Source of the DNA: Alphaproteobacteria bacterium
GTDB taxonomy: Bacteria > Pseudomonadota > Alphaproteobacteria > Bin95
Assembly (NCBI GenBank): GCA_964291285.2
Contig: OZ219787.1
Location: 1,152,001 to 1,216,000 of the forward strand
Reading direction: 5' to 3'
Length of the DNA: 64,000 nucleotides
Numbering within the stretch: position 1 is the stretch's first letter; each line of letters starts with the position of its first letter. A program made the translations under genes and the position numbers. The notes under the pieces are model-generated. The model searched no databases, had not been told where the DNA came from, and saw only the letters and a program-made list of their open reading frames with translations. Shown piece after piece: positions 15,454 through 16,940 of the stretch.

Positions 15454-15684
15454 CGCTCCTCCCTTTCCGCTTCGCCGCCTTGCGGCAGGTTGATGGATAC
15501 TTGCGCCGTTTCCGCGCCGCCTGCATGTCCGTGATTACCCCTCAACTTCTCCGTCACGGCCCTCGCTTCCCCCTTGCAGCCTTGTATCGACTTGAACGGA
15601 TTTCACGCCGGTCCGTCCGGCCGGCGGACGCCCTCTCTCTGCGAGCGGCTGCCGGCCGGCGGACGCACCTTGTATCTCTCCGGA

Positions 15685-15844
15685 TCGTTGTTGCAGCTAT
15701 AGTCGCAACAGCGGGAGCGGACGGGAGACCGCTAGCACCCAGGTTATGAAGACCGCGGGAGAGCATGGTTCCCCGTCCGCTGTTCCTTTGAACCCGAACA
15801 GTCGCTTGGTCCGCAGTGTGAGACCGCATTTGCAAGGACGGGAC
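15685..15844 (+). ncRNA. Putative IS110 bridge RNA
   Basis: 5' hairpin TGTTGC..GCAACA; loop closed by stem 15717-30/15767-80 contains GGGAGAG (revcomp of target CTCTCCC); second loop contains ACAGTCGCT (donor left plus core) and TGCAAG (approximate revcomp of CTTGTA). Confidence 0.82.
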
Positions 15845-16777
15845 ATGGAACGGATATTCGTTGGCATCGACGTGGCGAAGGATCGTCTGGACGTGCATCT
15901 GCGCCCGTCCGGGGAGGCCTTTGCCGTCGCGCGCGACGGCAAAGGCCTGGAAGAGTTGTCGGCGCGCCTGGGCGGGCTGGAGGTTGCCCTCGTGGTGCTG
16001 GAGGCGACGGGCGGCTTCGAGGTCACGGTCGCGGCGGCGCTCTGCGCGGCGGGCCTGCCATTGGCGGTGGTCAACCCGCGCCAGATCCGGGACTTCGCCC
16101 GCGCCACCGGCCGGCTCGCCAAGACCGACGCCCTCGATGCGGCGGCGATCGCACAGTTCGCCGAGGCGGTCCATCCCGAGCCCCGTCCGGTGCCTGACGA
16201 GCAGGCCCGCGCGCTCGCCGAGCTGGTCGCCCGGCGGCGCCAGATCGTCGCGATGATGACCGCGGAGAGAAACCGCAGGAGGCGCCTCACAAGCCGTCGC
16301 ACGATCCGCAGCGTCGACCGCGTGCTCGCCACCCTGCAACGCGAACTCTCCGACCTCGAAACCGAGCTCGGCGATGCGATCCGCAAATCCCCCGCATGGC
16401 GCCAGGCCGAGGACCTCCTCAAAAGCGTTCCCGGGGTCGGTGACGCCACCGCACGAACCCTGATCGCCGATCTCCCCGAACTCGGAACCCTCAGCCGAAG
16501 GCGCATCGCCGCGCTCGTCGGCGTCGCGCCCTTCAACCGCGACAGCGGAACCATGCGCGGAAAGAGAACCATATGGGGAGGACGCGCCAACGTCCGCGCA
16601 ACCCTCTACATGGCTGCCCTCACCGCCTCCAGGCATAACCCAACCCTCAAACGCTTCTATCGCCACCTGATCGCGGAGGGAAAAACCAAAAAGGCTGCCC
16701 TCACCGCCGTCACACGAAAGCTCCTCACAATCCTCAACGCTATCCTCAGAGACCGAACCCCGTGGAAAACAGCTTGA
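15845..16777 (+). CDS. IS110 DEDD recombinase/transposase
   Basis: [38 protein letters not shown]. Confidence 0.95.
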
Positions 16778-16940
16778 CCGACAACACAGTCGCTCTCCCT
16801 GCGAGCGGCCGCCAGCCGGCCGCCGGGAGAGGCGCGTCTGTACAGGACGGGGAGCGATGCGCGGCGCCCGTGCAACCGCCGCTCCCCGTCTGTGCCGTCA
16901 GGTCATGGTCCCGTTCGCTCCCGCCGGATGCTTCTTTCTA

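Follow-up and report, generated by a model that had tools for sequence, protein, structure and literature searches.

Analysis of a 64,000-nucleotide (nt) stretch of an alphaproteobacterial genome (contig OZ219787.1, positions 1,152,001 to 1,216,000 of the forward strand; assembly GCA_964291285.2), which we refer to as the window, identified what is almost certainly a genuine bridge-RNA IS110 element. The bridge-RNA mechanism was first described in 2024. The element occupies window positions 15671 to 16792 and is followed by one CT core (span 15671 to 16794; 1,124 bp). It is composed of a 174-nt noncoding left end, a gene for a 310-amino-acid recombinase, and a 15-nt right end after the stop codon, and it has no terminal inverted repeats. 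An earlier note, made from the sequence alone, had proposed that the left end encodes a bridge RNA of the IS621 type. The protein, the ends and core, a fold with compensatory changes, the covariation of guides with their DNA partners, and a conserved −35/−10 split all agree with that proposal, and every motif that the note had pointed out was found where the note had placed it.

Recombinase, ends, and copies of the element

The recombinase gene (15845 to 16777, plus strand; 310 amino acids and a stop codon) was identified by its matches in Pfam, NCBIfam, and the Protein Data Bank (PDB). The protein matched DEDD_Tnp_IS110 (PF01548; 3.4e-24) and Transposase_20 (PF02371; 4.2e-20), as well as NCBIfam NF033542, "IS110 family RNA-guided transposase" (222.9 bits; cutoff, 140). 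In the PDB, it matched the IS621 transposase (8wt6_A; E = 1.5e-38, residues 4 to 307) and, equally well, the ISCro4 transposase (9t56_A; E = 2e-38, residues 3 to 307), the latter compared at the level of protein sequence. Alignment to 8wt6_A placed D9 of GIDVAK, the E of LEATGG, the two D residues of KTDALDA, and the S-G of RDSGT opposite IS621 residues D11, E60, D102, D105, and S241-G242 (residue numbers in the chain are shifted by two), which PMC11208158 describes as essential. The compact 310-residue IS110 recombinase of the earlier note is borne out by family, PDB, and catalytic-residue matches. A longer reading frame that starts at ATG 15746 (343 amino acids) was rejected, as ATG 15845 is kept in relatives, whose homology to IS621 starts at that point.

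The boundaries of the element were read from its junctions. On the left, the target flank GACGCAC (15662 to 15668, plus strand; outside the element, with only GCAC at 15665 to 15668 conserved among copies) is followed by a CT core copy (15669 to 15670) and then by TGTATC. On the right, the left donor (LD) ACAGTCG, whose last base is the element end at 16792, and the second CT core (together 16786 to 16794, plus strand; identical at 13 right ends) are followed by CTCCC (16795 to 16799), the right target (RT), which lies outside the element as judged by the flanks of other copies and by orthologous empty sites. The right end at 16799 given previously thus includes 5 nt of target flank. An alignment of 78 right-end sequences showed the same conserved terminus, AC(A/G)G(T/C)CG-CT.

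The genome contains 13 copies of the element, and their open reading frames (ORFs) are intact and 100% identical in all 13. The ends are likewise the same genome-wide, with exact left ends in 12 copies and exact right ends in 13. CT is present at both junctions (12/12 left ends and 13/13 right ends). In sequencing runs X1 to X3, element contigs were at ~12 times the depth of flanking contigs, which agrees with this copy number. Unoccupied sites define the insert. Three such paralogous sites within a repetitive extragenic palindromic (REP)-like repeat read ...GGGCGCAC-CT-CTCCTGT..., with a single CT. One of the three, C3:2018661, reads CAC-CT-CTCC and has flanks near-identical to those of a filled site on C2, which indicates that the insert is TGTAT...GTCG plus one CT. 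An alternative core at 16795 to 16796, which also reads CT, was rejected because the empty sites (CAC-CT-CTCC) carry one CT fewer and because both the left donor guide and the right target guide described below fit the CT at 16793 to 16794. For the copy in the window, orthologous uninterrupted sites were found in 2 of the 20 relatives searched (same-genus genomes G002 and G008). In these, the left flank continues straight into CTCCCTGCGAG or CTCCCTTCGAG without the element, and the core position is CC or GT rather than CT.

Two further features were seen beside the insertion. The target region is present as an imperfect tandem copy of ~37 bp to the left of the element (GGACGCCCTCTCTCTGCGAGCGGCTGCCGGCCGGC versus GGACGCACCT and, across the insertion, CTCCCTGCGAGCGGCCGCCAGCCGGC; window 15624 to 15668 and 16795 to 16830), and the uninterrupted sites of G002 and G008 hold a single unit (L112 and L114). 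In addition, CCTTGTATC, which equals the core plus the start of the left end, occurs at 15580 to 15588, 90 nt to the left of the insertion.

Nine copies have an intact left end, and the remaining 4 of 13 carry another insertion sequence within it; for one of the four, the outer piece of the left end was not located. Judged from their sequence, these four interrupted copies are incapable of making an intact bridge RNA in cis. The nested insertions all fall in a 30-bp stretch inside the target-binding loop, equivalent to window positions 15715 to 15745 (G000:C3:1142108-1143558, C2:1145259-1147405, C3:1703455-1706995, and C2 upstream of 1295741). In two of the interrupted copies, the nested element is the same; it has terminal repeats CCCGACTTCCGCAACTCGG, and its CTAG duplication corresponds to the first four letters of the left target guide block. 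Such interruptions would fit the idea that the copies are inactive relics whose guide matches only record past activity, as would the fact that we obtained neither a circle signal (contigs of four runs) nor an RNA signal (no RNA run on record). We consider this idea very unlikely, however, given nine intact and identical left ends, 13 intact and identical ORFs, and the occupation of 5 of the 8 REP-like units that carry the target motif. The identity of all 13 copies also points to recent transposition. The element may not be confined to this genome: run X4, which is labeled as another organism, contains a near-identical element with three differences over 16123 to 16799 and a different right flank after CTCCC, which suggests that the element is present elsewhere.

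The predicted bridge RNA and its putative junction promoter

For comparative analyses, relatives of the element were taken from a scan of one genome per species, which yielded 80 loci, mostly alphaproteobacterial, with 61 to 93% protein identity. The 63 distinct left ends among these loci form the alignment used here (alignment A1). The noncoding left end (15671 to 15844, plus strand) is the predicted bridge-RNA region. It starts with TGTATC, the right donor (RD), and this start, directly preceded by the CT core, is conserved in nearly all 80 related loci.

The minimum free energy (MFE) fold of positions 15671 to 15848 has a free energy of −73 kcal/mol (z = −2.86), and only 2 of 200 shuffled sequences folded as well. 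It consists of a 5′ hairpin (CGUUGUUGC...GCAACAGCG; 15686 to 15713, plus strand) and two stem-loops with internal loops. The first, the target-binding stem-loop (TBL; 15716 to 15781, plus strand), has an outer stem formed by GCGGACGGG and CCCGUCCGC, an internal loop, and an inner hairpin at 15742 to 15754. The second, the donor-binding stem-loop (DBL; 15793 to 15842, plus strand), has an outer CCC/GGG stem, an internal loop, and an inner hairpin at 15807 to 15826. A Shine-Dalgarno-like AAGGA (15834 to 15838) lies within the right donor guide and its adjoining handshake base, 6 nt before the recombinase ATG, and the stem that closes the donor loop stops 2 nt before this ATG; this arrangement is such that folding of the bridge RNA could also affect translation of the recombinase.

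This fold is conserved by compensatory change. The consensus structure of the 63 left ends comprises 27 pairs, 14 of which have compensatory changes. Standard pairs fill 96.9% of cells, compared to 85.6% in shuffled controls; on each of five measures, all 500 shuffles fell short of what was observed, and pairing fell to 33 to 48% when the partners were slid by one to three columns. The outer stem of the TBL (helix 1) provides the bulk of the covariation signal, with 14 pairs, 12 of them changed on both sides, and 95.9% of cells paired. In the DBL (consensus helices 3 and 5), 97.2% of cells are paired, and the pair 152-186 is GC in 42 sequences, UA in 19, and AU in 1. The 5′ hairpin is absent from the RNAalifold consensus because the MAFFT alignment is out of register there; when the related left ends were folded singly, a hairpin of at least 7 bp with a ΔG of −8 or lower was found within the first 52 nt of all 63. 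The 5′ hairpin and two large internal loops previously read from the sequence are thus upheld by both the MFE fold and the covariation in relatives.

The best match of the left end in Rfam 15 was the Xanthomonadaceae small RNA sX15 (window 15703 to 15817, minus strand), at 28.1 bits versus a gathering threshold of 55 (E = 0.032). We set this match aside, since long symmetric stems can give a score regardless of the strand; sX15 and the TBL may be alike solely as long GC-rich stems. Apart from the 13 copies, a search of the genome with alignment A1 (nhmmer) detected just one detached piece of a left end and one orphan fragment that resembles the TBL (G000:C1:7919-8002, minus strand; L030/L119; E = 2.3e-9). 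The orphan is 81% identical to window positions 15714 to 15785 and differs in its guide letters. No recombinase gene, donor loop, or TGTATC end was seen near it, and no orthologue was seen in the 20 relatives searched. Matches to it in three genomes are multicopy and look like IS110 elements in their own right, and one genome matches only the 36-nt flank. The orphan fragment is probably a relic.

The ends of the element carry the two halves of a putative promoter. A −35-like hexamer, TTGACC (16774 to 16779, plus strand), lies in the right end and overlaps the stop codon TGA (16775 to 16777), and a −10-like hexamer, TATCTC (15673 to 15678, plus strand), lies in the left end, such that the two would be paired only after circularization. 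In the computed circle junction, they are separated by 17 nt (GACAACACAGTCGCT plus TG), as the earlier note had proposed. This arrangement is conserved: all 47 distinct related junctions contain TTGAY, and in 45 of them it is separated from TATnnn by 17 nt. In IS621, the promoter is split across the circle junction (PMC11208160, sections 5 and 8). By analogy, the hexamers described here would act as a promoter once joined, and the excised circle would be the main source of the bridge RNA. The circle junction was not seen in the contigs of the four runs (X1 to X4), which speaks neither for nor against a circular form, since contigs drop rare forms.

Donor and target guides

Four guides were assigned to the two loops. 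We assessed single matches against shuffled versions of the 174-nt left end (20,000 mononucleotide shuffles) and assessed covariation among relatives, for which 76 alignment rows gave 66 usable rows and 42 distinct target loops. Three of the four guides covary with their DNA partners.

In the donor loop, the left donor guide (LDG), ACAGUCGCU (15798 to 15806, plus strand; ACAGTCGCT in the DNA), is identical to the right end at 16786 to 16794, that is, to LD plus core. A 9-mer match of this kind arose in 13 of the 20,000 shuffles, making it individually unlikely. Its seven noncore letters equal the right end in 41 of 42 relatives, where they follow three covarying variants (ACAGTCG, ACGGTCG, and ACAGCCG). 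The right donor guide (RDG), UGCAAG (TGCAAG at 15831 to 15836), together with the DBL handshake base G at 15837 (15831 to 15837, plus strand), pairs with CT-TGTA through one G:T wobble. The RDG is nearly invariant among relatives (GCAAG), as is the TGTATC start of the left end; the fully complementary UACAAG occurs in 2 of 42, and in a relative whose RD is TGCAT, GCAAG is fully paired. The earlier note had credited the element with a donor specificity of its own, which is not particular to this element, as donor ends of the form ...ACAGTCG-CT-TGTATC... are common to most of the 80 related loci.

In the target loop, the right target guide (RTG), GGGAGAG (15757 to 15763, plus strand), is the exact reverse complement of CT-CTCCC. 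A 7-mer complementary to core plus RT was found in 382 of the 20,000 shuffles and is thus also individually unlikely. C 15756 may extend this guide, as it could pair with the G that follows CTCTCC(C/T) in 10 of 13 copies. Across the 42 target loops, the five noncore letters of the RTG match 4.76 of 5 positions of their own right flank, compared to 2.52 for noncognate flanks; the match is perfect in 33 of 42 cognate versus 104 of 1,722 noncognate comparisons, and none of 10,000 permutations reached the observed mean. The right flanks tracked in this manner include CTCCC, CCCCC, CACCC, CATCC, CAGGA, CAGCA, CAGGG, CTGTC, CAAGA, and CAGTC. That so many different 5-mers are each tracked by their own guide is, in our view of these sequences, more telling than the permutations.

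These results also bear on a different account of the left end, in which its structure is merely an mRNA leader that controls translation, target choice lies with the protein, and the complementarities arise as a side effect of end conservation. The Shine-Dalgarno-like motif inside the RDG is compatible with this account, because structure at the 3′ end could influence translation, and the donor match alone fails to separate the two ideas, because the donor loop and the donor ends hardly vary. However, the RTG tracks the right flank in lineages with 61 to 93% identical proteins, and a complementary change in the RNA is not predicted if the protein alone recognizes the target; the LDG, too, follows its three LD variants. 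We therefore regard the leader account as extremely unlikely and retain the interpretation that the left end encodes a bridge RNA.

The left target guide (LTG) block, CUAGCACCC (15732 to 15740, plus strand; CTAGCACCC in the DNA), matches its flank only in part. The effective guide appears to be GCACC (15735 to 15739), which equals positions −4 to −1 of the left target (LT) plus the core C; opposite the core T, the block ends in a C that would leave a C:A mismatch on the bottom strand. Among relatives, the best-register match of the LTG is 4.71 of 7 letters for cognate flanks versus 4.09 for noncognate flanks (0 of 10,000 permutations), which is weaker than that of the RTG, and the register shifts by 1 to 2 nt among lineages.

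A logo of all insertion sites, as suggested by the earlier note, showed a target of GCAC-CT-CTCC(C/T). In the left flanks of 12 copies, G is present at −4 in 8, C at −3 in 11, A at −2 in 11, and C at −1 in all 12, and positions −7 to −5 are variable. In the right flanks of 13 copies, the CT core is followed by C, T, C, and C (13/13 each), by C in 9 or T in 4, and by G in 10; the T variant forms a G:T wobble with the first G of the RTG. Conservation coincides exactly with the positions readable by GCACC and (C)GGGAGAG. The distal LTG letters CUA match the flanks in only 1, 0, and 0 of 12 copies. Five of the 12 left flanks lie in one REP-like repeat. The remark that this insertion tolerated left-guide mismatches was too narrow, in that the same pattern holds for all 12 copies and for a Reyranella relative. 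In that relative, which has 10 copies, LT positions −4 to −1 and the core match in 10 of 10, and positions −7 to −5 match in 0 to 1 of 10. This leaves two readings: a left guide that is short in this clade, or a general tolerance of distal mismatches.

One explanation of the poor left match is that the guide is in fact the full 9-mer and that all 12 insertions are half-matched, off-target-like events that followed a recent horizontal arrival in a genome from which the perfect site, CTAGCAC-CT/CC-CTCC, is absent. Indeed, the full-guide site CTAGCACC[CT]CTCC does not occur in the 6.1-Mb genome, which holds seven unoccupied GCACCTCTCC[CT] sites. The identity of the copies means that the expansion is recent, a near-identical element with another right flank is present in run X4, and some relatives match their left flank over 7 to 9 of 9 letters (e.g., L042, L074, and L031). 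Moreover, a 2026 preprint (10.64898/2026.08.31.748434) reports half-match recombination and off-target insertion for bridge recombinases. On the other hand, the Reyranella relative behaves alike, which makes a left guide of short effective length look like a trait of the clade, and the best-register matches in the 42 relatives center on 4 to 5 of 7 letters. We consider the full 9-mer explanation unlikely. We tentatively suggest, as a plausible reading that stops short of a preferred one, that this alphaproteobacterial clade divides target reading differently from IS621: the left guide would read ~4 bases plus the first core base, a nonpairing base would face the second core position (in this element, L045, and L086), and a 7- to 8-nt right guide plus one handshake base would carry most of the specificity.

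Handshake bases lie beside the antisense guides; according to section 11 of PMC11208158, such a base must not pair with position 7 of its own DNA and should pair with the other DNA after strand exchange. C 15764 (plus strand) of the TBL can pair with position 7 of the donor (G 16792) but has no pairing partner in position 7 of the target (C 15668), and G 15837 of the DBL, directly 3′ of the RDG, is unable to pair with the donor G and pairs with the target C. By analogy, these two bases probably act as handshake bases. In relatives, the TBL base is C in 42 of 42 and donor position 7 is G in 42 of 42, while the DBL base and target position 7 form G:C in 38 of 42, A:T in 1 (a compensatory change in L058), G:T in 2, and G:G in 1. 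With handshake pairing, the C that directly precedes the core in almost all targets of the clade would be accounted for.

Several points weigh against the assignment of a bridge RNA and its guides. The RDG match is by itself within chance, since 3,036 of the 20,000 shuffles hold a 6-mer that pairs with core plus RD with at most one wobble; the position of the RDG is nevertheless conserved in relatives. The LTG is poor, with 5 of 9 letters matched, a C opposite the partner of the core T, and a register that varies by 1 to 2 nt. The guide counts exclude 10 of the 76 rows, whose ends were unaligned or whose flanks were too short (L059, L079, L082, L088, L094, L097, L100, L102, L105, and L106), and the relatives are kin, so that the permutation figures overstate independence. 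The search of Rfam 15 returned no family at the gathering threshold, so no curated bridge-RNA model confirms the assignment. Finally, no RNA-labeled run on record carries the element; all 24 runs on record were covered as contigs.

By analogy with IS621, we propose that excision would fuse the two ends of the element, right to left, placing TTGACC 17 nt from TATCTC and driving a bridge RNA of ~160 nt, which would fold into the 5′ hairpin, one loop for target binding, and one for donor binding and presumably be bound by the recombinase. The donor loop would hold the circle junction through ACAGUCGCU, whose sense is that of the right end plus core, and UGCAAG, which is antisense to the core plus TGTA. 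The target loop would hold GCAC-CT-CTCC(C/T), with GGGAGAG antisense to CT-CTCCC and GCACC in the same sense as GCAC-C. C 15764 and G 15837, one base 3′ of the antisense guides, would pair only with the other DNA, and recombination at the CT core would insert the element. A system of this design is expected to be programmable through its loops.

Genomic surroundings, known systems, and significance

The genes around the element were inspected by eye from their translations. To its left, on the minus strand, a 147-amino-acid ORF (15010 to 15453) looks like the helix-turn-helix part of another transposase, and a 474-amino-acid ORF (13276 to 14700) looks like an ATPase. To its right, a 452-amino-acid ORF on the minus strand (17033 to 18391) looks like a membrane transporter. 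An AT-rich stretch of ~80 nt (16930 to 17010) lies between the insertion site and the end of this ORF, in an otherwise GC-rich region.

The closest described system is IS621 of Escherichia coli. The two elements share the D-E-D-D and S-G protein architecture and a CT core, and PMC11208160 (sections 6 to 9 and 12) and PMC11208158 (sections 6 and 9 to 12) describe for IS621 the same placement of the RNA in the left end, a junction-split promoter, the order of 5′ hairpin, target loop, and donor loop, the sense/antisense logic of the four guides, and handshake bases. Both also insert into repeated extragenic elements. The recombinase is smaller than that of IS621 (310 versus 326 amino acids), as is the predicted RNA (~160 versus 177 nt), and the donor sequence, ACAGTCG-CT-TGTATC, is unlike that of IS621. 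The target also differs: IS621 uses ATCAGGC-CT-AC, with seven left and two right noncore positions (PMC11208160, section 9), whereas GCAC-CT-CTCC(C/T) has ~4 left, 2 core, and 5 right positions, so that, unlike in IS621, the right guide holds most of the specificity information. Facing the second core position is a left-guide C here and a U in IS621, and this unpaired position contrasts with the strong preference for full pairing that section 8 of PMC11208160 reports for IS621.

Other IS110-family systems are similar in part. ISPpu9 and ISPpu10 of Pseudomonas putida are likewise multicopy IS110 elements inserted in repeated intergenic or REP sequences, although the small RNA gene of ISPpu9 lies downstream of its transposase, not upstream as here, in the accounts that PMC12288879 and 10.64898/2026.03.19.712850 give of them. 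The IS1111 group, with its seekRNA, resembles the element in having a DEDD recombinase and RNA-guided site choice (PMC11208160, section 12). That group has long RNA-carrying right ends and subterminal inverted repeats of 7 to 17 bp; the present element has a right end of 15 nt and its RNA in the left end and therefore does not belong to the IS1111 group. All features that define the IS110 group and can be examined in silico were found, with target pairing clear for the right half and partial for the left.

The element belongs to a known kind, as bridge RNAs are predicted in 85.7% of cataloged IS110 elements (PMC11208160, section 12) and thousands of orthologues are reported (PMC11208160, section 6); the supplementary lists of predicted bridge RNAs in that paper may already contain it or its relatives. 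It opens no new question, since both the mechanism and the family are already known and NCBI already has the protein name "IS110 family RNA-guided transposase." What it offers is a natural bridge-recombinase system with clear boundaries, present in 13 identical copies and with a target logo that can be read from one genome. The 42 distinct target loops of the clade constitute a small natural reprogramming series, which reveals the guide letters in use, namely, those of a long right guide and a short left guide plus a single handshake base, and which may help in the choice or engineering of orthologues. If the clade does divide target reading as suggested above, then the guide geometry of natural bridge recombinases would be more plastic than the IS621 rules suggest, and nine perfect noncore matches and pairing to both core strands would not be universally required.

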